39,704 nucleotides of DNA from a virus (Duplodnaviria; Caudoviricetes), in IMG/VR virus record IMGVR_UViG_3300043423_000188, positions 1 to 39,704 of that record; one strand, 5' to 3'. The translations under genes were made by a program, and so were the position numbers. Within the stretch, counting starts at the first letter, position 1. The number at the start of each line of letters is the position of its first letter. Of the stretch, positions 7,898-39,704 are shown piece after piece. The notes below the pieces were generated by a model. It saw only the letters and a list, made by a program, of their open reading frames with translations. It ran no database searches and was not told where the DNA came from.

Positions 7898-8578
7898 TCA
7901 AACGGTTCTTGCTCGGTCTTGGTAAATCCAATAGCAATCACAAGACGCTTTTTCTAGTGCAGGTCTGTTTAATATTTCTATCTGGCCGCGACTTAGTTTC
8001 ACATGTCCACGAATAACAAGTTTCTTTAAAGCAAGTGCAACTGCTTCTCTACGGAAACCAAGCAAATCAGCAACTTCTTGTTGCGTGATTTGTATCACCA
8101 AAGTCAGACTGTGATCGAGTGTTATCAAAAACCACCGAATGAGTTGCTTCTCTGTTGAGTGATGTCTCCCGCATGCCATTGTTTGTGCCATCTGAGCCAT
8201 TAACTTACACGTATCCGACTGAGCTGCATGTGTATAAACAGGGCAATTCATTGCTTCATGCTTCAAGGCACTTGTCGGTATTTGATAGGCAAGTCCTGTA
8301 TTTCTAACTGTTGCACGATAAAAGCTGGGCCTATCCATAACGGCCATACCCACCATAGAAGTTTTTCCTATGACGTTTATTTCAATGCTCGTACCTTCAG
8401 TTAAATCTACCAACATCGAAACTAACGCACCTGCCGGGTAATACACATTTGTGGGCCGCTGGCCTATTCCAAACAATGTTTGCCCTTTGTGCAAAATTAC
8501 CTTTTTCAGATGCGGTTGTAATCGTAAGTACTCTGATTCAGGAATGCTAGCTAATAGTAAATTGGAAAAAAATGTCAA
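7898..8578 (-). CDS. Crp/Fnr family transcriptional regulator
   Basis: cNMP-binding-like N-terminal domain (NLLLASI..EYLRLQPHL..VILHKGQTL...VYYP) and C-terminal HTH ITQQEVADLLGFRREAVALAL; visibly lower GC than the flanks. Confidence 0.88.
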   Translation of the reverse strand: MTFFSNLLLASIPESEYLRLQPHLKKVILHKGQTLFGIGQRPTNVYYPAGALVSMLVDLTEGTSIEINVIGKTSMVGMAVMDRPSFYRATVRNTGLAYQIPTSALKHEAMNCPVYTHAAQSDTCKLMAQMAQTMACGRHHSTEKQLIRWFLITLDHSLTLVIQITQQEVADLLGFRREAVALALKKLVIRGHVKLSRGQIEILNRPALEKASCDCYWIYQDRARTV

Positions 8579-8888: not shown

Positions 8889-9248
8889 TCATCCCAATCG
8901 CGCCACATAACGCGCATAGTCCCCACCCTCGGGATTGACGTAGAGGTAGGGTCGTCCTGGTGCTTTGATCTCAACGCACAAAAATCCGCCACCTGTGCCG
9001 CCGCCTTTGCCTGCAAGCCAATCGCGTGACCTGAGGAGCGTTCGGCCAAAGCTGTCGAACTCATCAGCAGTCATCTCGCAGGTTGCAGTCACGAGCACCT
9101 TGTAGCTGCCGTAACCGCCCACTTCCTCGAGGCTGCAGAGCTTGCGCGCAAAGGGCAGCTCGATGCTGAGTTCCTCAACGTCAATTTTCTTACCCCCGAA
9201 GTCTATGGTGCAGGCTGTGCGCTCGATCGTGATGGTCATCGTGCTCAT
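8889..9248 (-). CDS. Conserved prophage hypothetical protein
   Basis: VEIKAPGRPYLYVNPEGGDYARYVA C-terminal motif; ATGA overlap with the upstream gene. Confidence 0.7.
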   Translation of the reverse strand: MSTMTITIERTACTIDFGGKKIDVEELSIELPFARKLCSLEEVGGYGSYKVLVTATCEMTADEFDSFGRTLLRSRDWLAGKGGGTGGGFLCVEIKAPGRPYLYVNPEGGDYARYVARLG

Positions 9249-9742
9249 GCTGCGACTCCTTCGCTGCTGATGCGATAAGTGCGCTCTTGGCCCGCTGCTT
9301 TGTCTGAGGTGATGGTGAGGCCCAGTTTCTTTTTCAGGGCTCCGGCCATTGCGCCACGCACGGTGTGTGCTTGCCAGCCGGTGGCTTCGATCAGTTGGTT
9401 CAAGGTTGCGCCATCGGGGCGCTTGAGCAACTCAATCATTTGAGCTTGCTTACTGTTTTCTCGTGTACGCGGTGTTTTGGGATTGGCTGGCGCAGCGTTG
9501 GTCTCCAACGCTGGCGCGTTGGTTGATCCCTTGCGTGGCACACCGATCGCGTCGTAGCCCTCGGCTGCAATGAACCAGTTGCTGGCGCTCTTGGTGATGA
9601 GTGTTCGGTTGAACAAACCGTCGAGCACTTTTTGGCGAGCTCCCCCTTTGATGTTTTCCGGGAACCATTCAATCTTGCCCGATGTGTGTTGGTATGCATG
9701 GGCAAGGATGGCTTGTTGGGTGGCTGTGAGTGTGGTGGTCAT
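9245..9742 (-). CDS. DUF3489 domain protein (winged-HTH-like)
   Basis: RENSKQAQMIELLKRPDGATLNQLIEATGWQAHTVRGAMAGALKKKLGL; AGGAG RBS. Confidence 0.85.
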   Translation of the reverse strand: MTTTLTATQQAILAHAYQHTSGKIEWFPENIKGGARQKVLDGLFNRTLITKSASNWFIAAEGYDAIGVPRKGSTNAPALETNAAPANPKTPRTRENSKQAQMIELLKRPDGATLNQLIEATGWQAHTVRGAMAGALKKKLGLTITSDKAAGQERTYRISSEGVAA

Positions 9743-20961: not shown

Positions 20962-23575
20962 ACGCAATCTCGCAATTCGACTCTCGGTGGTGGATGGCGG
21001 CAAGGTCAAGGCTGAGCTCTCCGATGTTGGAGAGGCGGGGGAGAAGTCTCTCAAGCGCATTGAGGCCGCATCGCAACCTGCCTCAGCAGGATTGCAGATC
21101 GTCTCCAAAGCAGCCAACGATGCGTTCGCGCAAATGGAAGATGCCACCTCGCGTCTTGGGCTCCTTGGAACGGTTCTCGGAAAACTCGGTCCCGCAGGTT
21201 TGATTGCTGGAGCCTCCATCGCTGCAGCTGGATACGGCATGCATCAGCTGATCGTGCCAGTGGCCGAAGTTGGTGAAGAGCTGAACAAGCTCTCGCAAAA
21301 GACAGCGGTGTCAGTGGAGGCCTTGTCTGCGCTGCTTTATGTCTCTGAGCTGTCTGATGTCAGTACTGAGAGTTTGACCAAGGCTTTGAAGTTTTTGTCG
21401 ACCGCCATGTTTGACGCAAAAGTCAAAAGCGGCGAGGGCAGCGCTGCATTGCGCGCGTTTGGTATTTCGGCATTGGATGCGAATAACCAAATCCGTCCGA
21501 CCGAAGAGGTCTTGCTCGATCTTGCCGATAAGTTTTCGGCCATGCCAGACAGTGCCGAAAAAGCTGCACTTGCGGTGAAGCTATTTGGCAAGAATGGTCT
21601 GGACATGATCCCGATGCTCAACCAAGGGCGGGACGGGATCACGGCCATGATGGAAGAAGCCAAGCGCTTAGGCTTGGTGATGTCTGCAGATGCTGCACGG
21701 GCATCGGAAGAGTTCAATGACAACCTGAAGCGACTGCACGCGGTCAACGAAGGTGTGCAGCGTCAAATTGGCTCGGCCTTCATCCCGATCTTGGCCGATT
21801 TGACGGAACACATCTTTCTTGCCAAAACAGAGACTGGTGGTTTTAGCAGTGAGCTGATTGCAATCAGCAACAACCGCCAGCAAGTGCTCAACTACCTTGA
21901 GGACGTTGCCAAGGGGCTTGGCTTCATTGCTGAGTCGGCAGTGCTGGCCAAGCGGGTCATCTCTCAGCCGTTTGACAGTCTGTCTGTGGTGGGCAAGGAC
22001 GTCGAAACATGGATGAAGAGCGACATGCTGCGCTCGATGAAGTCCATGGGCTACAACGAACAGCAGATTGATGCGGAGATTGCCAAGCTTCAAGGCGCAC
22101 GTGACAAGTTTGTTGAATCAGCCAACGAGCGATTGGCGCGCATCAATGACAACCCCGGTTATGTGAACTCGATTGAGAAGTTCTTCGATGAGCAGCGTCG
22201 AACCGTTCGGGTGATGGGCCAGAAGTTTGTACTTGATACAGCTGAGCAAGCTGCACAGGTGCAAAAGATCTATGACGAGTTCTTGCCCAAGATGCCCAGA
22301 AAGGCTCCTGCCGGGATGGACCTCTCTGGGTTCGACAAGAACAATGAAGGCCTGCAATTTTTAAAACAACTCGAGCAACGCTCAATGCGTGTGACCGGTG
22401 GCGAGGCTGCTGAGCTCAGAGCCAAGGCGCTGGACTTGGAGAAAAAGGGCTACGCAGGTGTGCGGGCTGAAGCTGAGAAGTACATCCAAGTCATTGAGGC
22501 CATGGAGAAGCAAAAGGTCTCGGACAAGAAGTTCGATGAGTACGAGAAAGAGCTGCAAAAGGTTCATCAGATCACCGAGGGCTACATCGGTAACAACCGT
22601 CTCAAACAAGAAGAGCTGGTGCTCAAGCGTCAGATGCTTGATGTGGGGGATGTCGAGCGTGCTGGCATGCAAGTGCGCTTCGATTTGGAAAAAGCTGCTT
22701 ACGCTGCGCGCAGGCAAGCGGATCAAATCACCGACCCCGGGCTAAAGGCTGAAGCGATCGAGATCATCAATCATGCGTTGTCACGCCAGTTGCCTGTGAT
22801 CGTTGACTTGGCCCGTGCCAATGCGGAGTACCAACGCAGCTTTGATTACGGCATGCGCTCATCGGTTCGCAGCTATGTGGAAGACTCTACCAACGCTGCC
22901 AAGCAAGCTGAGCGGGCGGTGACTTCTGCTTTCAAAGGTATGGAGGATGCGCTCGTTCAGTTCGTGACCACGGGCAAACTCGACTTCACCAGCTTGGCCA
23001 ACTCCATCATTGCTGATCTGGTGCGCATTCAGATTCAGCGCATGGTCACTTTGCCATTAGCTGGGTGGTTGGGAGGTTTTGGTTCAACACCCACACCTGC
23101 GCCTGGCGGCAGCATCGTTCCAATCGGTGCGACAGACCTTGTAAACCCCATGGTCGCAGTGGCACACACGGGTGGCTTGATTGGGTCGGACAGTTTGGTC
23201 TCCCGATCTGTGGGGCTTCACAACTTCGCAGGTGCCACCCGTTATCACACGGGTGGTCTTGTCGAAGGTGAGGTTCCCATCATCGCGCAGCCGGGTGAGG
23301 CGGTGTTCACGCCCGGTCAGATGCGCGCATTGGGTGGGGCGCTTTCTTCTAAGAACCAGCCTCAAGTGCGCGTGGCTGTGAATGTGATCAATAACGCCTC
23401 GGGCGTGGATGCGCGTGTGCAGTCTTCTCAACAAGCGGATGGTTCCATGCGTCTAGACATCATCGTGGAGCAAATTGAAGCTCGCATGTCCCGATCAATT
23501 GGTCAGGGCACGGGGATTGCGCCAACTCTTGAGCGCCGCTATGGGTTGAATCCGGCTGCAGGAGCGATGCGATGA
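20954..23575 (+). CDS. Tail tape measure protein, lambda-type C-terminus
   Basis: Long Ala/Leu helical protein; AFKGMEDALVQFVTTGKLDFTSLANSIIADL and HTGG motifs. Confidence 0.92.
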   Translation: MAERNLAIRLSVVDGGKVKAELSDVGEAGEKSLKRIEAASQPASAGLQIVSKAANDAFAQMEDATSRLGLLGTVLGKLGPAGLIAGASIAAAGYGMHQLIVPVAEVGEELNKLSQKTAVSVEALSALLYVSELSDVSTESLTKALKFLSTAMFDAKVKSGEGSAALRAFGISALDANNQIRPTEEVLLDLADKFSAMPDSAEKAALAVKLFGKNGLDMIPMLNQGRDGITAMMEEAKRLGLVMSADAARASEEFNDNLKRLHAVNEGVQRQIGSAFIPILADLTEHIFLAKTETGGFSSELIAISNNRQQVLNYLEDVAKGLGFIAESAVLAKRVISQPFDSLSVVGKDVETWMKSDMLRSMKSMGYNEQQIDAEIAKLQGARDKFVESANERLARINDNPGYVNSIEKFFDEQRRTVRVMGQKFVLDTAEQAAQVQKIYDEFLPKMPRKAPAGMDLSGFDKNNEGLQFLKQLEQRSMRVTGGEAAELRAKALDLEKKGYAGVRAEAEKYIQVIEAMEKQKVSDKKFDEYEKELQKVHQITEGYIGNNRLKQEELVLKRQMLDVGDVERAGMQVRFDLEKAAYAARRQADQITDPGLKAEAIEIINHALSRQLPVIVDLARANAEYQRSFDYGMRSSVRSYVEDSTNAAKQAERAVTSAFKGMEDALVQFVTTGKLDFTSLANSIIADLVRIQIQRMVTLPLAGWLGGFGSTPTPAPGGSIVPIGATDLVNPMVAVAHTGGLIGSDSLVSRSVGLHNFAGATRYHTGGLVEGEVPIIAQPGEAVFTPGQMRALGGALSSKNQPQVRVAVNVINNASGVDARVQSSQQADGSMRLDIIVEQIEARMSRSIGQGTGIAPTLERRYGLNPAAGAMR

Positions 23576-24060
23576 CGAGTAGTTATCCACAGTTTCCGAT
23601 TGAACGGATCCCTCTTCCTTCGGTGGATGGTTACACCATCTCGCCTGGTGAGGCTGTGATTCGAACGGACATGGAGTCGGGGGCGGCAAGATCGCGGCGA
23701 CGGTTCAGTCAGACGCCTGCACGGGTGAGTGTTCGTTGGAACTTGCGCCCGCTGACCTATGCGATTTTTGAATCTTGGTTCAAACACGAAATCCTTGATG
23801 GTGCGGAGTGGTTCGAACTGCCATTGCTTGCGGGCATCGGCATGGCCACCACACAAGCGCGTTTCACCAAGGCTTATCAAGCCAAGCTGGTGCGGCGCAA
23901 CCAATGGGAAGTCAGCGGAGAGCTGGAAATCCGAAACCGTCCAGTTCTAACCCGTGATGCGCTGGGAGTTCTTGTGAACTCTGACTTTGAAGCCTTGGAG
24001 CTTTCCATCGACTCGCTCGAATACCTCGTCCAACACCAACTGCCCTCAGAACCCTGGTAA
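23572..24060 (+). CDS. Distal tail protein (gpM-like)
   Basis: IRTDMESGAARSRRRF...FESWF..DGAEWF; ATGA overlap with the tape measure gene. Confidence 0.75.
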   Translation: MTSSYPQFPIERIPLPSVDGYTISPGEAVIRTDMESGAARSRRRFSQTPARVSVRWNLRPLTYAIFESWFKHEILDGAEWFELPLLAGIGMATTQARFTKAYQAKLVRRNQWEVSGELEIRNRPVLTRDALGVLVNSDFEALELSIDSLEYLVQHQLPSEPW

Positions 24061-26748: not shown

Positions 26749-27348
26749 GTGCCTATTACCCAAATCCCACCCGAGGGCCTGAAAGATTCGGGCGTATCTG
26801 CAGGAACCTATGGGTCTGCTTCGCAAATCCCTGTAGTGACGGTCAACAGCAAAGGCCAAGTCACCTCGGCGGGTACAGCAGCGCTGGACTTGTCGACTAA
26901 GGTCAATAAGTCGGGCGACACGATGACGGGAACGTTGTCTGTTCCGCGTCTGCAAGTCACCTCCACTGCTAACTACATCGACATGGTCGATACGGACTGG
27001 GGTACACGTTCGTTTTATCACAACCAGGGGCTCATGGGATTTTTGAAATCCGATGGCAACTGGGACATGTACATGAACAACGGTGGTCAGATGTGGGCGG
27101 CCAACTACGGCTGGTTGCATGACTATTTTTTCAGCAACGTGAGTAATTGCATTCGAATTAATGGCAACCCATCATCAGCTTGGTCAGGTGCACCTAACTG
27201 CCAGGTGACAGACAACTGCTACAACTGCGGAGAATTTGCACCTAATCAAAGTAACACGTTACCGACGCTGTTTGATAACGGTGGAAACATACGACTTGGT
27301 GCTTATGGCACTCGATACAACTGCAATTGCGATTGCAACTGTTGCTGA
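26749..27348 (+). CDS. Small tail-fibre/receptor-binding protein with Asx-Cys-rich C-terminus (candidate modification substrate)
   Basis: Fibre motifs SGVSAGTY..VTVNSKGQVT and KSGDTMTG; 9 Cys, all after residue 133; ends YNCNCDCNCC; AGGAGG RBS, GTG start. Confidence 0.75.
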   Translation: MPITQIPPEGLKDSGVSAGTYGSASQIPVVTVNSKGQVTSAGTAALDLSTKVNKSGDTMTGTLSVPRLQVTSTANYIDMVDTDWGTRSFYHNQGLMGFLKSDGNWDMYMNNGGQMWAANYGWLHDYFFSNVSNCIRINGNPSSAWSGAPNCQVTDNCYNCGEFAPNQSNTLPTLFDNGGNIRLGAYGTRYNCNCDCNCC

Positions 27349-27359
27349 GGAATGAAAAT

Positions 27360-28202
27360 ATGAAACTTCACCTAGCTACAAAAAATACACCGTTTGCGCT
27401 TGATGTTGTTCTGACCGGCACGATTCTGAAGTTTCAGATCAGATCAGTTGTGCAGAGAAACTTTGTGGGAAATCCTCAAAAAGAGGATGTCAACGGATGC
27501 AAGTTCTTTGATGAATCGTTGATTACCGAGTGGCGGGGAGATTGGGGCGTTTTTGATGAAGGCGCCTACCAGCGATCTCTAGACTTGGAAACACTCAAAT
27601 CACATGCTGAGTTTGGCGACCATGCTTCGTTCATGTTGTATGCGCCGAAGGGCTGGGCGTCAGAGGGCGCGCGTGAAAGCCTCTTTGATCACACGCCCAA
27701 TCTGTATGTCGCCACTTTGGCGAGCAAGATGGATGCGCAGGCGTATCACGCGACCGTGGTTCAGGCGCATCCCATCGGTCACATCTTGGTGCCATTCAAA
27801 ACATCTGAACTCGCAGATTGGTTGCTTGGTTTCAATGTGTTCGATCCTGTCCTTGTTAAAACACAAGGCGACATCGATGCAGAGCCTTGTGTCACTCTGG
27901 CTCTGGCGCGTATGGAGTCATTGCCTGTGGTTCGATTCATGCCCAGCACTGAATCGTACGACGGACTGATTGTTAGTTTCAGACTTGAAGAGCCTGATGG
28001 CAAGCCAATCATCCATCACGATGCAGACGTCTATTTGGATTCAACCGCTGGGTTCTTACGTGACCGTCGTGTGATGACAGTTGATGGCGCAGGAAGCACT
28101 GTCTTTAAAACAGACGGCTTGAGCTCAGGCACCCAAGTCAAGATCAAAGTCGGCTTCAAGTACTTCAGCGGTACGGATGACTTGGTGGTGAGCGTCCCAT
28201 GA
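27360..28202 (+). CDS. Hypothetical protein with probable C-terminal Ig-like domain
   Basis: GAGGAA RBS; the last ~85 aa are alternating beta-strands (VSFRLEEPDGKPI..DVYL..TVDGAGSTVF..QVKIKVGF). Confidence 0.65.
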   Translation: MKLHLATKNTPFALDVVLTGTILKFQIRSVVQRNFVGNPQKEDVNGCKFFDESLITEWRGDWGVFDEGAYQRSLDLETLKSHAEFGDHASFMLYAPKGWASEGARESLFDHTPNLYVATLASKMDAQAYHATVVQAHPIGHILVPFKTSELADWLLGFNVFDPVLVKTQGDIDAEPCVTLALARMESLPVVRFMPSTESYDGLIVSFRLEEPDGKPIIHHDADVYLDSTAGFLRDRRVMTVDGAGSTVFKTDGLSSGTQVKIKVGFKYFSGTDDLVVSVP

Positions 28203-28810
28203 TCCTTGACCTCTTCCCTCTTAAAACAGGGATCTGGTCACTTGGAATGGATGCGACGTTTGATCAGGATCTCTATGAAGAGCTATTGCAATTGAACGCC
28301 CGCATGCAAACAGGCGATCAGATCTGGGAGCGCAAAGGTCACAACATCTTTGACGGATATTCGCCGCGCTGCCAGACATTGCAGACGGCAGTCCTGTCCA
28401 AAGTGCAGGAGTTGCTTGGCCCAAGCGGACGAGTGGTTCATGTGCAAGGGCGAGAGGTCGTTCGTTCTAGTGGCGTCGAAATCATGCCGCACAACGACGA
28501 AGACGAATGCGATGTGCAGGCCATCTACTTTCCATTCGGCCCCGAGCTTGACTCTGCACTTGAGCTGATGCCGCAGATCAATCAATTTGTTCCCAATGGC
28601 TTTGCCATCTGCAACCCCGCCTGGCGCTCGTCCGGGTTTGCTGGGTTACTCATGCCTTGGGAAGCCCCATCCAAGTTCTGGATCAAACCTCATCGCGATC
28701 TGTTGATAGCGTTTGACGCCAGAGCAATTCATTTTCAGAAACCCTACTTTGGGGAGCAACCGTTTATGAACATTCTTTTCAATATAAAAGTGGAGCGCAT
28801 CCATGGCTGA
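28199..28810 (+). CDS. Putative 2OG-Fe(II) oxygenase / double-stranded beta-helix protein
   Basis: LFP N-terminal motif, H98-x-D100 plus distal H178 facial triad, KP..DLLIAF...H...P.....NILFN pattern. Confidence 0.6.
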   Translation: MILDLFPLKTGIWSLGMDATFDQDLYEELLQLNARMQTGDQIWERKGHNIFDGYSPRCQTLQTAVLSKVQELLGPSGRVVHVQGREVVRSSGVEIMPHNDEDECDVQAIYFPFGPELDSALELMPQINQFVPNGFAICNPAWRSSGFAGLLMPWEAPSKFWIKPHRDLLIAFDARAIHFQKPYFGEQPFMNILFNIKVERIHG

Positions 28811-30152
28811 GTTCCGTATCTATGTGATCAAGCCAGACGGCGCAGAAGACTCGCTGGTCTACAACAACCAGACTTCGAGTCTTGTTTGGAGCAATGGTCA
28901 GTCGGTCGTTCCAGTCAAAGCACGCGCTTGGCGTGATGCGACGGTTGTTGCCAAAGATCAACCCGGTCGCAAGGGCAATGTGCGAGTGCTCAAGATCAGC
29001 CTTGGCCTGCTTTGCAATTACGCCTGCACTTACTGTTCACAACGGTTTGTACCCCATGCCGACCAGACCAATCCAGAAGATGTCGAGACATTTCTTCACT
29101 CTCTGGTCGATGCGCTGATTGAACCTCCAGAGCGTATTGAGTTCTGGGGCGGTGAGCCGCTGGTTTACTGGAAGACCTTGAAGCCACTGGCTGAGCGGTT
29201 GAAGGCGTTGTACCCCAAGGCTCAGTTCAGCATGATTACCAATGGCAGTCTGCTAGATGCGGACAAGAACGCATGGATTGACCGTTTTGGATTCTCCGTA
29301 GGGTTGTCGCACGATGGTCCTGGTTATCACGCACGTGGTGCTGATCCCTTGGATGACCCACAAAAACGAGCTGCCATTTTTGATCTGTACGCACGCTTGA
29401 AGCCTGAGGGTCGAATCAGCATCAACGTCATGATTCACTCAAGCAATCCAAGTCGCGCTCATGTGCAGGCATGGCTGCGCGAACGCTTTGGTGATGACGT
29501 CGTCATTGGTGAGGGTGCATTCATTGACCCTTACGACGAGGGTGGATTGGCTTCCACGTTTCAGACTTCAGACGAGCGCGTCACTTTCAGTGCCTATGCG
29601 TTCAAGGAGTTGCGTGCAGGTGAAGCTACCAGTTTTGATATCGGTCGCAAGAAGATCATGGACTTTGTGGAGTCTGTGGCACAAGGTCGCCCTGCCAGTG
29701 CGTTGGGCCAAAAGTGCGGCATGGACCGTACCGACAACCTCGCTGTTGATCTGAACGGCAATGTGTTGACTTGCCAGAACGTGAGTGCAGCCGCTGTCGC
29801 TCCAAACGGCGAGTCACACACGATTGGACACATCTCTCAGCTTCAAGCAGTCAAGATGCGCAGCGCCACGCATTGGAGCAAGCGAGATGGTTGTTCAAAC
29901 TGTCCTGTGCTTCAGTTGTGCAAAGGCTCATGCATGTTCTTGGACGGCCCCTTGTGGACGGCAGGGTGCGATGCCTCCTATGCCGACAACGTGCCGTTCT
30001 TAGCCGCTGGCATTGAGTTCCTCACTGGCTGTTTTCCGTTCTACATCGAGGGCGATTTCCCACAGGAGCGGCGAGATATCTTTGGATTAGCCAGTGAGCA
30101 CTCCGAAGCGAAAGAGCGTCGTGTCATCCCCATCAAGGTAGAGCATGCCTGA
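28803..30152 (+). CDS. Radical SAM enzyme with C-terminal SPASM domain (peptide/protein maturase type)
   Basis: C71xxxC75xxC78 (CNYACTYC), FWGGEP, ITNG, LSHDG; SPASM pattern Cx13Gx4C...Cx2Cx5Cx3Cx11C. Confidence 0.92.
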   Translation: MAEFRIYVIKPDGAEDSLVYNNQTSSLVWSNGQSVVPVKARAWRDATVVAKDQPGRKGNVRVLKISLGLLCNYACTYCSQRFVPHADQTNPEDVETFLHSLVDALIEPPERIEFWGGEPLVYWKTLKPLAERLKALYPKAQFSMITNGSLLDADKNAWIDRFGFSVGLSHDGPGYHARGADPLDDPQKRAAIFDLYARLKPEGRISINVMIHSSNPSRAHVQAWLRERFGDDVVIGEGAFIDPYDEGGLASTFQTSDERVTFSAYAFKELRAGEATSFDIGRKKIMDFVESVAQGRPASALGQKCGMDRTDNLAVDLNGNVLTCQNVSAAAVAPNGESHTIGHISQLQAVKMRSATHWSKRDGCSNCPVLQLCKGSCMFLDGPLWTAGCDASYADNVPFLAAGIEFLTGCFPFYIEGDFPQERRDIFGLASEHSEAKERRVIPIKVEHA

Positions 30153-30687
30153 TGTGACATTGAGTGATGCGTTGAAAGAGGCGTACGCGAGTGCGCCTTC
30201 AGATGTGGTGATCCTGCATACCTTGGAGCTGCGTCACCCTGACTTTAAAAGCGATTCGGGTGTGACAACAGCAATCCGTGTGGTGCGAGATCAACAAGAC
30301 CTCTTTGCGCGCCTCGAAGCTTCGGCACCGTTGAACTCAAGTGAAACGGTGAGGTTCGTGGCCATGGGATTCGATTTGGATTTGCCACCTGTGGATATTG
30401 CTCCCGTTCCTGAGGTCGTGCTGACCTTGGACAACGTTTCACGCGAAATCGTCAAACACCTTGATGCTGCGTCGGAGTCAGAAGCTTCCATCGAAGTGAC
30501 CTATCGCCCGTACTTGTCAAACGATGTAGAGGGGCCGCAGATGGACCCTCCCATCACGCTGGTACTGACCGAGGTGGAGGCGGATGTGATGCGTGTGACC
30601 GCAAGAGCGCGAATGGTGGATATTGGGAACAAAGCGTTTCCGGGGCGGCTGTACACCTCGACAGAGTTTCCGGGACTTGCCCGGTGA
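30145..30687 (+). CDS. DUF1833 family minor tail protein (gpL-like)
   Basis: ALKEAYASAP..VILHTLELRHP...LTLDNVSREI..VTYRPYLS; precedes the NlpC and J genes. Confidence 0.8.
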   Translation: MPDVTLSDALKEAYASAPSDVVILHTLELRHPDFKSDSGVTTAIRVVRDQQDLFARLEASAPLNSSETVRFVAMGFDLDLPPVDIAPVPEVVLTLDNVSREIVKHLDAASESEASIEVTYRPYLSNDVEGPQMDPPITLVLTEVEADVMRVTARARMVDIGNKAFPGRLYTSTEFPGLAR

Positions 30688-34806: not shown

Positions 34807-35709
34807 TCACTTGGCCCAGCCGATGTCCCGCAAGATTAAACCTAAAGCCTCAATGGCAAGCTGGGCGTCTTCCTCGATAGGGGGGCGGGCTTCCTTAGCG
34901 TGTTGCTCATTACCTTTTCCTCGGGCGTGAAGTCGAGCAGCGACCTGTGCGAGATTACCTATTACGAACATCTGATAGGGTGGGGCAAGGACAACTTTTG
35001 CGACTTCGCCGATGTCTTTATCCAGAATAGATTTCGGATGTCCTTGTTGAACGAGCCATCGACCAAGAATAACTGTCATTGCATTTTTGCAGTGATCAAC
35101 TACGGAGATAGCAGTTTCCCGGAAGGCTGAGTCCAAAGCTCGGTTGAATGCTTGGGTGACAGGCTGTTGGTGCTCCATCGAAACCTTGTTCATGTCGATT
35201 GCAGGCAAAATTCCAAATGCGCTAAGTGCTTTAAGTGTCACCATTACGCAGCCGCTAATCAAAAGTTCGGTTTGGACGACTCGCCATGAGGATGCGGCCT
35301 GAGTAGTTCCCAATGCTAAGGTTGAGCCCTGTCCTTGATTAGGTTCCTGGAGTAAAGGCGTGCAAGCCATGTATGTATAAAGTGTTTTTCGCGTTAGACC
35401 TCCCTGGCCCGCAGATTTTCCGAAAGGGTCCTCATATGGATGTGGTGTCACGGAAGTTGTTGTCGGTTGAATTCCTCCTGGTTGGAAGTAAAGGCGACCT
35501 CGTCGAGTGCGAGTCACTGCATCAAAAGTGTCTTCCCGGAAGATCCAGCTCAAAGACGATTGGCTGAAGTTAAGGGGCAGAGCGAGCCAGTCCTCTGGGC
35601 TTCTGATTAATGTGGCTAAGGCAATATGAGGCGTAGGAATAGTCGGGGAGCTAGGGTGCCCCCAACCCTCATAGACCAAACCTGAGTTGTTATCGATTCC
35701 AAGATACAT
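34807..35709 (-). CDS. Hypothetical moron protein, possibly anti-phage (helical HEPN/Abi_C-like C-terminus)
   Basis: 300-aa ORF with AGGAG RBS, convergent with the lysis genes, lower GC; FREDTFDAVTRTRRGRLY motif. Confidence 0.6.
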   Translation of the reverse strand: MYLGIDNNSGLVYEGWGHPSSPTIPTPHIALATLIRSPEDWLALPLNFSQSSLSWIFREDTFDAVTRTRRGRLYFQPGGIQPTTTSVTPHPYEDPFGKSAGQGGLTRKTLYTYMACTPLLQEPNQGQGSTLALGTTQAASSWRVVQTELLISGCVMVTLKALSAFGILPAIDMNKVSMEHQQPVTQAFNRALDSAFRETAISVVDHCKNAMTVILGRWLVQQGHPKSILDKDIGEVAKVVLAPPYQMFVIGNLAQVAARLHARGKGNEQHAKEARPPIEEDAQLAIEALGLILRDIGWAK

Positions 35710-35825: not shown

Positions 35826-36770
35826 TCAAGCCATCGGAATCGGAGGGGGAGCAACGAACTCTTCTTTTTGCTCCATTTCATTGTCATAAGACTCGAGTGC
35901 ATCTCCGCCAAATGTCTTTCGCATTTGGTTTGCCGCTTCCTTACTATTTCCGCTGCTCCATGTTGATTGAATCGAGTCTGGGTCGATTACAGACCGAATT
36001 TCAGCTCGCTCGTAATCTAGAAGTGGGCGGCCGGATAGAAATAGCCTTCCGTCTTCAAATCGTGGCCAAAAGAAGCCTATATCGGTTGAATTTAAGTATT
36101 GGTAAATTTTTACTGCTTGAGGCGCACCACCGATGCTATCGTTAGCAGAAGAATTTCTGAGAAGATCCCGAATGCATTCGAAAGGCTCCAAGTTGAACCT
36201 TGCTGTTGGGGGGTGACGCATGTCAAGACCATAGCGCGACTGTGCTAAAGCTTTTACATTCTTATGTAACGTTGCAGTCCACTCTGGGTCACCTGCAATT
36301 TCGATCTTTCCAAGTCCACCCAATGCGTTACTTCCCGTTCGCTCATCTGCGATAAAACAGGACATTGTTTGATTGAATTCAATTCGCCACAGTCGAAATG
36401 ATTTTTTCCACCAGTCGTAGCCTCCGAACAAGAAGGTGACATCTGGAATATTTGCTCCATGTGCGAAATTGTGTACCTCACTCTGCATCTGATTTAACAG
36501 ATTAAGCAAGTGAGTCTTGAATTTTGAAAGAGTGAGCGAGCGAGTCTGCGACGGCGCATGAAGATCCGCTGCTTTGATTGCGGCGATGATCATGGGGTAT
36601 GCCCAATCTGTTCTGCCTGCAAAGCAAATGGCCGCATCTGTGCGATTGAAACGGAAAGTTTTTTGGCAATGATCGAATCTTGTGCCATTGCTTAATCGGC
36701 TATCTGAGCAAAAAAAGAGCTCTTCGGCCCCATTTTCTAGGGTTCGAATCCAAGCTGCAGCTATTGTCAT
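35826..36770 (-). CDS. Putative Ntn-hydrolase (proteasome beta/HslV-like fold) protein
   Basis: Starts M-T-I; SDSRLS motif, downstream QK, ICFAG, FLFGGYD and late SIGG motifs echo proteasome-subunit motifs. Confidence 0.6.
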   Translation of the reverse strand: MTIAAAWIRTLENGAEELFFCSDSRLSNGTRFDHCQKTFRFNRTDAAICFAGRTDWAYPMIIAAIKAADLHAPSQTRSLTLSKFKTHLLNLLNQMQSEVHNFAHGANIPDVTFLFGGYDWWKKSFRLWRIEFNQTMSCFIADERTGSNALGGLGKIEIAGDPEWTATLHKNVKALAQSRYGLDMRHPPTARFNLEPFECIRDLLRNSSANDSIGGAPQAVKIYQYLNSTDIGFFWPRFEDGRLFLSGRPLLDYERAEIRSVIDPDSIQSTWSSGNSKEAANQMRKTFGGDALESYDNEMEQKEEFVAPPPIPMA

Positions 36771-36877: not shown

Positions 36878-37361
36878 GCAACGATCCTTTCAGTTTGCGA
36901 AAGTGAACAAACAAAGCATATTTGTCAATGACCGTCGATTGTCAGGGGCTGTGTGATGTGGTTTGTCAAATGGTCTTTCACTTTCTCGACGGTCACAAGC
37001 TAGGCCTTGCATTGCTCCTCAAGGTAGTCGTGCTGTTCGTAGAACTTCTCCTTTAGGCTGGCTGCGGATATTCGCGGCAGACGGTCCCAGCGACCGCTGC
37101 GATCGATACCCGACGCTCGCGGCTGTAAACCGTAGGCTTCACGAAATACCGCCGCGTTGCTCGATTCGTTGCGGAGACGCATCAAGCGAAGCGTTAACCC
37201 CAAATTCTTCCGTAACTGCGACAGAGTCTGTTCGATTGCGGTCTAATCAACGCACAGGAAGGGGCTCGACATAGTACGCGCGGATGCAACCGGGTTGTAT
37301 TGAAGCCTCTTGTGTCAATGCCGTTGCAAACGCGGCAACTCAATACAGGAGGCACAGCATC

Positions 37362-39704
37362 GTGACCACACCAGCAGCACCAGCAATTTCGTCCGGTAGC
37401 ATTACGCTGCGGTATGTCGAGTTGTGCAAGTTCCGTCGCCTGGGCAAGGTCCAATTGGACTTGGACCCGCTGACGACGATTCTCGTGGGCGCCAACAACA
37501 GCGGCAAGACCGCCATCCTCACCGCGCTTCGGCACTTCCTAGCTGAATCCTCGCCCTTTGGCGCGTTCGACATCAGCCTCTCGGAGTGGCCCGTGCTTCG
37601 CGCGCTGGGCGTCAAATGGGAATCGTTGACGGAAGATCCGGCGACCGCCGCACCGAAGGAGGGCGACAACTGGGAGGACGAGCTAGCGACGCTGTTGGCG
37701 GCGATGCCCACGCTGGATTTGTGGTTCGACGCTGAGGCCGGGATGTTCCACTACGTTCAGCCCTTCTTGTCCAAGTTGGTTTGGAAAGGTGGCGCTGTTG
37801 GCGTCCGGCTGCGCCTGGAGCCGGCCAGCGATGTCGCGTCGCTCAAAGAGCTGGCCTGGGCCTACAACTTGGCGCGCCAACCTGTGAAGGGCATTAGCAG
37901 CGATTCGCTGGCCTGGCCGATTGACCTGCTTGACTACTGGCTACGCGAGCCCAGGAAGCTGGGACAGGTCAAGCCGTACAGCCTTGATGCGGCCAACAAT
38001 CCTATCCAGGGGATCAAGACCTACAAGACCCAGGTCTTGGCGGCGGGCGCGCAGCCAGCCGACCGCAAGCACCTCGCTAAGTTGATCCGCGTCGACTTCG
38101 TGGCCGCCCAGCGTGGCCTCGGCTCGGAAGAGGCCGACTCCAAGTCTACGTCGTCATCACATCCCGTCGGCCTGTTTTCGAACCAGCTCCTGAAGTTTGC
38201 GCGCCAGCACCTCAACGTCGCCGTCACTGGGCACGGGCAACGCGCCGACCTCATCCAGGCGGTCGCCAATGCGCAGAAGGACCTTGACCTGAAAATACAC
38301 GAAGCCTTGGCGTCCTCGGTGGCCGAGGTGAAGATGCTCGGCTACCCCGGCCTTCATGATCCTCAGGAAATCAGGTTCAGGACGCGTATCCACACCGCCG
38401 ACCTGCTTGACCACAGTACTGCCGTCCAGTACAGCATGAAAGGCGGGACCGGCGAAGACATGCTGCCGGAGTTCTCGATCGGCTTGGGTTACCAAAACCT
38501 GCAGTCGCTGAGCTACCAGCTCGTGTCGTTCAAGACCGCGCGCATGAACCCTGAGAAAGGCTCGCCGCCACCGGTCCACCTCGTCATGATCGAGGAGCCC
38601 GAGGCCCACTTGCACGTCCAGGTGCAGCGCATCTTTCCGGACAAGGCGCACAAGCTCATCAGCCCGACCGATAGTGATGCCAGCGCGCTGCAAAGCCAGT
38701 TGCTGATCAGCACCCATTCCAGTCATCTCGCGCACGCCGAGGACTTCGATCGGCTGCGGTACGTGCGGCGGATTCCAGCCTCGACGTCCTATCCAACGCC
38801 GAGCACCGAAGTTGTCGACCTGGGGGAAGTGTTCGGCGACGACGAGGAGACACGGCAATTCGCGGAACGCTACTTTCGCGTGCAACACACCGATCTTCTG
38901 TTCGCCAACGCCGCACTGTTCGTGGAAGGAGTCGCAGAGCGGATGCTCGTGCCGCTCTTCATGGAGCTGAAGTACGAGAAATTGAACAGCCGCTACGTCT
39001 CTTTCCTGGACATCGGTGGCAGCCACGCACATCGGCTGAGGCCCTTGGTTGAGAAGCTCCGGATTCCTACCGTCGTCATCACCGACCTCGATCCCACCGA
39101 GAAGAAGGCCGGCCCCAAAGGCAAGATGCGCTGGATGGCCACGGCGAACACAGGCCAGGCCGGCCTAAGGTGTGGCAATGCCACGCTACGCGAATGGCAT
39201 CCCAAACTGCAAAACGTGGACGACTTCAAGGCGCCAACTTCCGCCCAACTCATCTGGACCGGTGCACCGGACTGCAAGGTGCGGTTCGCATGGCAGCTGC
39301 CGGTCTCTGAGGCGGGCAATCAATGGCCGACGACCTTCGAGGACTCGCTGATCCTTACCAACATCGACTGGTTCAAGGGGCTGAATAAGTTGGCTGAAGA
39401 GACTGAGGCTGCCAAGGCCGGCGGCCAACAAAAGGCCGAGGACGAAGACAAGGAAAAGAAGGTCAGGCCACCTACCGGCGCACTTGCCGAAGCGGCCGAG
39501 GTCGTGGCAGGTGCTGCCACCCACGTGGATCTACTGCAGGCCCTACATGGGCTGATGCGGGATTCGTTCAGCAAAGGCGATTTTGCGGCCAGCATCTTTG
39601 AGCGCGTCGCGGCCGGTGAGGATGTCACGTGCCCCAAGTACATCGCCGACGCCCTCAGCTGGCTACAGGATGAACTCGATCCTGCCGGAAGTATGACGCT
39701 ATGA
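37362..39704 (+). CDS. OLD-family ATP-dependent nuclease (ABC ATPase + TOPRIM), GajA-like
   Basis: Walker A GANNSGKT, signature-like IGLGYQN, Walker B IEEPEAHLH, STHSSH, TOPRIM FVEGVAE and ITDLD; AGGAGG RBS before GTG at 37362. Confidence 0.9.
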   Translation: MTTPAAPAISSGSITLRYVELCKFRRLGKVQLDLDPLTTILVGANNSGKTAILTALRHFLAESSPFGAFDISLSEWPVLRALGVKWESLTEDPATAAPKEGDNWEDELATLLAAMPTLDLWFDAEAGMFHYVQPFLSKLVWKGGAVGVRLRLEPASDVASLKELAWAYNLARQPVKGISSDSLAWPIDLLDYWLREPRKLGQVKPYSLDAANNPIQGIKTYKTQVLAAGAQPADRKHLAKLIRVDFVAAQRGLGSEEADSKSTSSSHPVGLFSNQLLKFARQHLNVAVTGHGQRADLIQAVANAQKDLDLKIHEALASSVAEVKMLGYPGLHDPQEIRFRTRIHTADLLDHSTAVQYSMKGGTGEDMLPEFSIGLGYQNLQSLSYQLVSFKTARMNPEKGSPPPVHLVMIEEPEAHLHVQVQRIFPDKAHKLISPTDSDASALQSQLLISTHSSHLAHAEDFDRLRYVRRIPASTSYPTPSTEVVDLGEVFGDDEETRQFAERYFRVQHTDLLFANAALFVEGVAERMLVPLFMELKYEKLNSRYVSFLDIGGSHAHRLRPLVEKLRIPTVVITDLDPTEKKAGPKGKMRWMATANTGQAGLRCGNATLREWHPKLQNVDDFKAPTSAQLIWTGAPDCKVRFAWQLPVSEAGNQWPTTFEDSLILTNIDWFKGLNKLAEETEAAKAGGQQKAEDEDKEKKVRPPTGALAEAAEVVAGAATHVDLLQALHGLMRDSFSKGDFAASIFERVAAGEDVTCPKYIADALSWLQDELDPAGSMTL

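Follow-up and report, generated by a model that had tools for sequence, protein, structure and literature searches.

Why would a tailed phage place a radical enzyme among the genes for its receptor-binding fibre? The question is raised by the IMG/VR provirus record IMGVR_UViG_3300043423_000188, whose 39,704 nucleotides form the stretch analysed here (the window). In its tail region, between a Dit-like and a gpL-like gene, lies a cassette of four co-oriented open reading frames (ORFs) of 199, 280, 203 and 449 amino acids (aa), encoding a short tail-fibre tip protein, a non-enzymatic partner (F1), a putative oxygenase and a radical S-adenosylmethionine (SAM)/SPASM enzyme (Table 1). A prediction made earlier from the letters alone had described these genes as tightly coupled, and we reproduced every coordinate, gap and overlap: an 11-nucleotide gap at 27349-27359, an ATGA overlap at 28199-28202 and 8-nucleotide overlaps at 28803-28810 and 30145-30152. 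The original prediction further proposed that the phage uses the chemistry of peptides that are made on ribosomes and modified after translation (RiPPs) on its fibre tip.

The tip protein ends in RYNCNCDCNCC, an Asn-Cys ladder. NC[ND]C[ND]C matches nowhere else in the window in any of its six frames, which agrees with the earlier view that the only Cys-rich candidate substrate is the C-terminus of a fibre protein. This protein is of fibre type in sequence and sits in the receptor-binding slot; its Atlas neighbours at 0.86-0.89, which we treat only as a lead, include gp36/gp37/gp34 fibre clusters. That no free short precursor peptide is present was also borne out: the short leader-plus-core precursor and the protease or exporter of a RiPP cluster are missing, the predicted substrate is a 199-aa fibre protein, and no protease or transporter family scored above cut-off among the scanned cassette genes. 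The 449-aa protein belongs to the radical SAM/SPASM superfamily. It has a SAM-barrel fold, a CxxxCxxC motif (C71/C75/C78) and seven SPASM cysteines (305, 324, 364, 367, 373, 377 and 389), as had been read from the sequence at the outset, and all of these are invariant in 58/58 aligned sequences. It matches PF04055 above cut-off, TIGR04085 at 35.2 bits (cut-off 27) and phrog_1802 at E 5e-59, and at least 2526 relatives, distant radical SAM proteins included, are found in databases at E <= 0.001. Ratios of nonsynonymous to synonymous substitution rates (dN/dS) against eight close relatives were 0.04-0.16 over all four cassette genes, and 0.05-0.14 for the tip protein, indicating purifying selection.

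To see how the enzyme and the ladder are distributed, we collected loci from the enzyme side (80 of 582 viral and 80 of 190 cellular, the best in each case, plus three cultured phages) and searched for N-C-[NDAQ]-C ending an ORF within 7 kb, counting those with 5 kb or more upstream. A ladder was present upstream of the radical SAM gene in 103 of 106 loci (101 at the ORF terminus, 2 followed by a Hint domain) and, at 80% enzyme identity, accompanied the enzyme in 35 of 36 clusters; the same motif occurred downstream in 0/78 and on the opposite strand in 1/164. The three loci without a match are one disrupted by an insertion sequence (IS), one deletion and one variant ladder. This motif replaced a looser C-x-C-x-C because the background of the latter was high (97/106 upstream, 37/106 on the opposite strand and 7/78 downstream). 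From the fibre side, homologues of the tip protein gave 78 loci; in the 52 that could be counted, having a closed ORF with 4 kb or more downstream, ladder and enzyme were both present without exception. A homology-independent DNA-pattern scan returned 120 ladder loci; we analysed 119, and in the 54 with 5 kb or more downstream the radical SAM gene accompanied 35/35 ladders ending a real ORF, 1/3 internal ladders in real ORFs and 1/16 short-ORF matches. Microsatellites account for many of these short-ORF matches, the enzyme being absent from 13 of 14 short terminal ones. We rejected a microsatellite origin for the real ORFs, where codons are mixed and pure hexamer repeats make up 2 of 74 unique ladder DNAs. 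Loci sharing the fibre N-terminal module (80, with 57 countable) had both elements in 13 cases and neither in 41, the remainder being two unrelated weak radical SAM matches and one spurious case. Apparent counter-examples were discarded: the ladder of L286 is a spurious antisense ORF, the radical SAM genes of L262 and L263 are unrelated, at 18 bits, and L331 seems to have suffered deletion and disruption. The pairing of the enzyme with a Cys-rich fibre gene thus holds in both directions, and the two are gained and lost together as a unit.

We then compared relatives anchored on the gpL-like gene. Among 73 such loci, the 28 with at least 6 kb upstream divided into 15 with both ladder and enzyme and 13 with neither. 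In the slot of the 13 cassette-free relatives we found an RCC1-repeat protein with a gene of about 150 aa in seven (by Pfam on two of them) and a collar fibre in one; the Dit-like gene abutted gpL in two, two distant relatives (36%) had no recognisable slot (one inspected), and one was degenerate. Two prophages whose gpL is 94-96% identical to that of the window (L317 and L320) have another tip and other accessory genes, and the enzyme on the contig of L320 (L053) is 54% identical. The both-or-neither split and the swapped fibres argue that the cassette is an exchangeable alternative to the ordinary receptor-binding module. Upstream of the tip gene, the 876-aa fibre has PHROG tail-fibre matches (E 9e-6 to 2e-3) and an N-terminus common to the first slot gene of cassette-free relatives; it is likely the stalk that docks the short tip protein. 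As a side observation, RCC1-repeat proteins (L336:7886-9538 and relatives) occupy this fibre slot, and the PHROG entries called 'regulator of chromosome condensation' found there are therefore probably receptor-binding proteins.

A structural model places the ladder in the enzyme. The model contained the enzyme, SAM, three clusters and residues 100-199 of the fibre, and gave a complex score of 0.69 against 0.00 for the best control, a mark reached by 116/157 solved and 2/215 mismatched pairs; runs agreed in at least 16% of contacts, and the predicted local distance difference test score (pLDDT) of the fibre partner was at least 37. Fibre residues 186-198, the only part confidently placed, lie in the active site, with N191 at I145, N208, Q325 and N326, and with C192 and C194 at C305 and C377. 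Three of the four residues in contact with N191 are catalytic-proximity positions in the scheme given in the available text of PMC10288494. Between C305 and C324 none of the 58 sequences has an extra Cys. They thus lack the Cys that stands second in the SPASM pattern of anSME, as would be expected if a substrate thiol binds to the auxiliary cluster. CteB provides a precedent for an open three-Cys site at auxiliary cluster I. Across ladders, the residue between cysteines (n=220) is Asn in 139, Asp in 32, Ala in 25, Gly in 9, Cys in 5, Gln in 4 and another residue in 11. The joint inheritance and the modelled threading of the ladder suggest that the enzyme very probably modifies the ladder in some manner, as the proposal of RiPP-type chemistry on the fibre tip would have it, and we think it probable that it cross-links the tip through Cys-to-Asn/Asp thioethers. 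That the reaction is of this kind and that virions contain the modified protein are both our inference.

In the mechanism we propose, the late-expressed enzyme would bind the ladder itself, needing neither a leader peptide nor a canonical RiPP recognition element (RRE). A three-strand sheet (residues 3-29) precedes the barrel in its AlphaFold2 model, without RRE helices, and Pfam and NCBIfam scans of the cassette genes matched no RRE family. The 5'-deoxyadenosyl radical would take a beta-hydrogen from Asn, Asp or Ala, with a ladder Cys thiol held on the three-Cys auxiliary cluster, and the product would be a thioether (-2 Da), with NxxC (N191-C194) the likeliest register, repeated along the ladder. 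Stapling might serve to close the trimer tip or to anchor the partner: the stapled end may close and stiffen the distal end of the trimeric fibre, or form a docking knob for the Ig-type partner. Optional oxygenases could then add decorations such as hydroxylation.

Several observations weigh against a thioether assignment. Of the closest folds (anSME, CteB at E 2e-11, ChlB, TigE and SuiB, and more weakly EpeE), the top match is anSME, a formylglycine maker, and the invariant D308 might occupy the fourth site at auxiliary cluster I. PapB, the best NCBIfam match, reaches only 64.8 bits against a cut-off of 340; QhpD (46.3 against 453) and SCIFF (32.6 against 425) fall short as well. The catalytic-proximity hexad S79-W115-I145-S169-Q325-N326, hand-mapped from a HMMER alignment following the partly available PMC10288494, is identical to the F-F-T-S-H-Q of CteB at 1/6 positions. 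The comparison with PapB and QhpD in the original prediction stands at the level of the radical SAM/SPASM class and not as ranthisynthase membership: by family and active-site profile, the enzyme is not of the PapB/QhpD type. Gly, Cys and other residues also stand at the X position of the ladder. The passing score of the complex may stem from likeness to the solved anSME-peptide and CteB-peptide complexes, the fold of the fibre partner within it is uncertain, and the job is unlike those on which the tool was calibrated. Our locus sets overlap, contain kin and are partly redundant, and the RP31 virion table in the accessible part of PMC5468394, a shallow list of 32 proteins made with the ladder ORF unannotated, includes no cassette protein.

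One rival reading is that the enzyme acts on the ladder by some other chemistry, such as alpha-thioether formation, epimerisation at every other residue, conversion of Cys to formylglycine or thioaldehyde, or C-C bond formation. Co-occurrence and the complex model would fit such a reaction equally well, the hexad is unlike that of CteB, anSME, TigE and EpeE are among the near folds, and a strict two-residue period would, by analogy, suit alternating D/L chemistry. We nonetheless consider this reading rather unlikely: the full seven-Cys SPASM lacks the second Cys of anSME (whose eight-Cys pattern is missing and whose family model TIGR03942 scores 48.6 against 349), the Cys of the two alternating positions is invariant, and the N/D/A/Q range at the other equals the acceptor range of NxxcB. 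It is improbable that the ladder is instead an unmodified needle binding metal or an Fe-S cluster through the CxC repeats of three chains, with the enzyme making a small molecule or acting elsewhere. CxC repeats are typical metal ligands, and a few internal ladders (L377 and L404) lack the enzyme; the tip of T4 gp37 reportedly holds iron at His-x-His sites. Such a needle leaves unexplained, however, why a peptide-maturase-type enzyme comes and goes with the ladder in both directions and why the ladder threads into the modelled active site.

Very improbable, in our estimate, is that the ladder is a conventional RiPP core, which would be cut from a fibre-like leader to give a free peptide with, for instance, an antibacterial or counter-defence role. 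The ladder protein of RP12/RP31 is just 65 aa long and stands with three annotated radical SAM enzymes and a DUF3050 protein, and the variable tailoring enzymes recall RiPP clusters. The cassette nevertheless takes the place of an ordinary fibre in the same slot, and we identified no protease or exporter among its genes. Self-cleaving domains follow the ladder, and cleavage there would keep the ladder on the fibre: it stands directly before a Hint domain in phage JWF and in L110 and directly before an S74 chaperone in L410. Hint and S74 domains cleave themselves off, so the ladder would remain at the C-terminus of the mature fibre. In L383:4633-5628 (+) and L392:44-943 (-) the ladder is followed by a domain starting SKI[VI]C, possibly a third self-cleaving kind, for which Pfam and PHROG searches gave no match.

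The rest of the cassette is more variable. Throughout the family a tip protein comes first, followed by a single non-enzymatic partner, accessory enzymes in varying number (from none to several) and the radical SAM enzyme. The partner is F1 in 107 of 119 rows and an unrelated protein, F3, in 12, never both together, a count that leaves aside L137, where substrate and enzyme are not separated by a partner, and RP12, which has a partner of the F1 fold. Homology between F1 and F3 was rejected, profile similarity being absent (probability 0.2%). Co-evolution of the partner with tip or enzyme is weak or absent: over 55 loci, with pairs that are not independent, Spearman coefficients were 0.13 for tip and partner, 0.31 for tip and enzyme and 0.02 for partner and enzyme. 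Tips, partners and enzymes reassort freely and the ladder alone is constant; since it does not change along with tips and partners, it probably has a structural role and does not determine specificity. In Paraburkholderia, L137:7482-9353 has a small Asn/Cys-rich, acidic-tailed protein directly before the radical SAM gene, with neither F1 nor F3 between them.

F1, modelled with AlphaFold2 at pLDDT 92.5, had been called an Ig-like protein. This description fits residues 189-280, which align with a GH2 Ig domain (VIA Z 11.1, root-mean-square deviation 2.1, 87 residues aligned) and with intimin (Z 10.3), and does not extend to the N-domain, which is beta-rich with no fold assigned. Viral fold matches include ORF075 of RP12, and Pfam, NCBIfam, PHROGs, PDB sequences and the Atlas gave nothing above lead level for the family; F1 is a candidate tip chaperone or adhesin. 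The predicted 2-oxoglutarate (2OG) oxygenase is likewise present, now as an optional add-on. It has the HxD/E...H facial triad of the double-stranded beta-helix fold; H98 and H178 are invariant in 25/25 sequences. Pfam gave no match for the copy in the window, and 21 of 25 family representatives match PF13759 at E <= 0.05, eight of them above the curated cut-off; the family also matches PDB 3bvc/2rg4. An Arg after the distal His (columns 186-192), which would bind 2OG, occurs in at most 9/25 oxygenases and is absent there in the window copy. We rejected the oxygenase as a core component, as 12 of 119 architectures, that of JWF included, lack every oxygenase-type family. A second radical SAM gene stands where the oxygenase would be in L140, L142 and L157. 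Four expanded cassettes (L024, L042, L054 and L082) have five to eight accessory genes between fibre and enzyme, including pairs of His-rich proteins that gave no Pfam match and that we presume to be like membrane desaturases or hydroxylases. Neither Pfam nor PHROG gave an informative name for accessory families F4, F5, F7 and F8.

Several known systems resemble parts of this arrangement. As described in the accessible part of PMC9389541, the radical SAM enzyme NxxcB forms a Cys-Asn beta-thioether, with the substrate thiol binding an auxiliary cluster and with Asn as acceptor, tolerating Ala, Gln and Asp. As in the streptococcal RaS-RiPP pair NxxcB/NxxcA, the ladder's NCNC is an N-x-x-C motif and its X residues match the acceptor range; unlike NxxcA, a short bacterial precursor, the ladder is the end of a virion fibre in which the motif is tandem and overlapping (a comparison made by description). 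In Methanococcus voltae, the SPASM enzyme CrpC puts thioethers on CrpA, a Cys-rich protein rather than a peptide; the Crp system differs in being archaeal and cellular, with an RRE, a PapB-like profile and the localised motifs ACAGM, CAVD, PCAGD and CPLVL in place of Asn-Cys ladders, and the text of PMC13692751 open to us mentions neither phage nor tail. QhpD/QhpC, PapB/PapA and CteB/CteA share the fold class and the seven-Cys SPASM (PMC10288494 and PMC13692751, both in part) and are set apart by far-off family cut-offs, the absence here of RRE helices and a leader, and the hexad comparison with CteB. By analogy, the phage enzyme likely works like NxxcB, QhpD or CrpC.

On the fibre side, Iyer et al. 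2010 (PMC2938197, in the sections available) predicted that co-encoded 2OG dioxygenases hydroxylate tail-collar-domain proteins. There too fibre-type proteins are the substrates of neighbouring oxygenases; that system, itself a prediction, differs in consisting of bacterial operons with sulfotransferases and in having no radical SAM enzyme and no Cys ladder. Fibres with S74 or Hint self-cleaving chaperones and fibre-plus-assembly-protein modules occupy the same slot, and some ladder proteins carry S74 or Hint; unlike the cassette, those fibres need folding helpers only, and we found none that needs an Fe-S enzyme. Our literature searches, which did not extend to subscription journals, supplementary files on bioRxiv or the genome paper of JWF, returned no account of a phage radical SAM enzyme acting on a virion fibre. 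In the accessible text, PMC12801897 names a cyanophage radical SAM gene an antibiotic-synthesis gene, and PMC5468394 merely lists the RP12/RP31 cassette genes under generic annotations. The cassette is real, widespread and apparently unpublished, with a mechanism that is predicted; among cultured phages, JWF, RSP15 and RP12/RP31 carry it. At L488:1948-2145 in RP31, and at the matching place of L003 in RP12, an unannotated 65-aa ladder-ended ORF directly precedes the F1-fold gene, the three annotated radical SAM genes and the DUF3050 gene.

There is about an even chance that widespread tailed phages (lambda-like prophages, siphoviruses, an ackermannvirus and phiKZ-like jumbo phages) mature a receptor-binding fibre through a leaderless radical SAM thioether ladder with swappable oxygenases, possibly as a trimer cross-link or a tie to an Ig-type adhesin, in a mechanism of assembly and host range. 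If so, a radical, Fe-S-dependent covalent step would join virion morphogenesis. Host recognition would rest on enzymes besides the fibre sequence, which bears on host-range prediction and recombinant fibre expression. The orphan phrog_1802-type family, now annotated as sulfatase maturase or MoaA, would gain a function, and the enzyme would be a leader-independent one, perhaps able to staple a C-terminal tag of nine residues on a folded protein.

Table 1. Positions in the window of the cassette genes, the ladder and the genes flanking them
Feature	Coordinates	Strand	Basis or remark
Short tail-fibre tip protein, 199 aa, predicted substrate	26749..27348	+	GTG start behind AGGAGG; PHROG tail-fibre matches
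Asn-Cys ladder N191-C199 (NCNCDCNCC), predicted modification site	27319..27345	+	Conserved across unrelated tip domains
Non-enzymatic partner F1, 280 aa	27360..28202	+	Beta-rich N-domain and C-terminal Ig-like domain 189-280
Putative Fe(II)/2OG-type oxygenase, 203 aa	28199..28810	+	H98-x-D100...H178; optional tailoring enzyme
Radical SAM/SPASM enzyme, 449 aa, phrog_1802, predicted maturase	28803..30152	+	Cys motifs, fold, family matches
Dit-like tail gene	23572..24060	+	Upstream slot border; phrog_384 virion structural protein; borders slot in relatives
Long Ala/Ser/Thr-rich proximal fibre, 876 aa	24092..26722	+	Three FTGNG-type adaptor module copies
gpL-like minor tail protein (DUF1833)	30145..30687	+	Downstream slot border; PF08875, phrog_396; anchor for slot comparison

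Around the cassette, the provirus is organised into a lambda-like head and a tail module, with genes for a GpA terminase, portal, S49 protease, capsid E, tube and tape measure, the Dit-like gene (a name that we give from its position), DUF1833, NlpC/P60 and gpJ-like genes and lysis genes. Among the matches listed, the enzyme's nearest cellular copies (93-94%) come from one genome of Limnohabitans and one of an unclassified member of the Pseudomonadota. Three loci are degenerate: L115, L045 and L331 have, respectively, an apparent deletion fusing fibre and oxygenase-middle sequences, an apparent IS-type insertion upstream of the radical SAM gene, and a tape-measure-to-gpL deletion. Past the lysis genes of the window lie two lower-GC ORFs, possibly defence cargo, at 35826-36770 (-) and 34807-35709 (-), neither matched in Pfam or PADLOC searches; the product of the former starts MTI...DSR, and we take it to resemble an Ntn-hydrolase/proteasome-type subunit. 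A Crp/Fnr-type regulator (cyclic-nucleotide-binding and helix-turn-helix) is encoded within the provirus at 7898-8578 (-), near a DUF3489 gene at 9245-9742. At the right edge, where the record ends before any GajB partner could appear, 37284-39704 (+) encodes a Gabija GajA-like OLD-family nuclease/ATPase (PADLOC E 2e-243).

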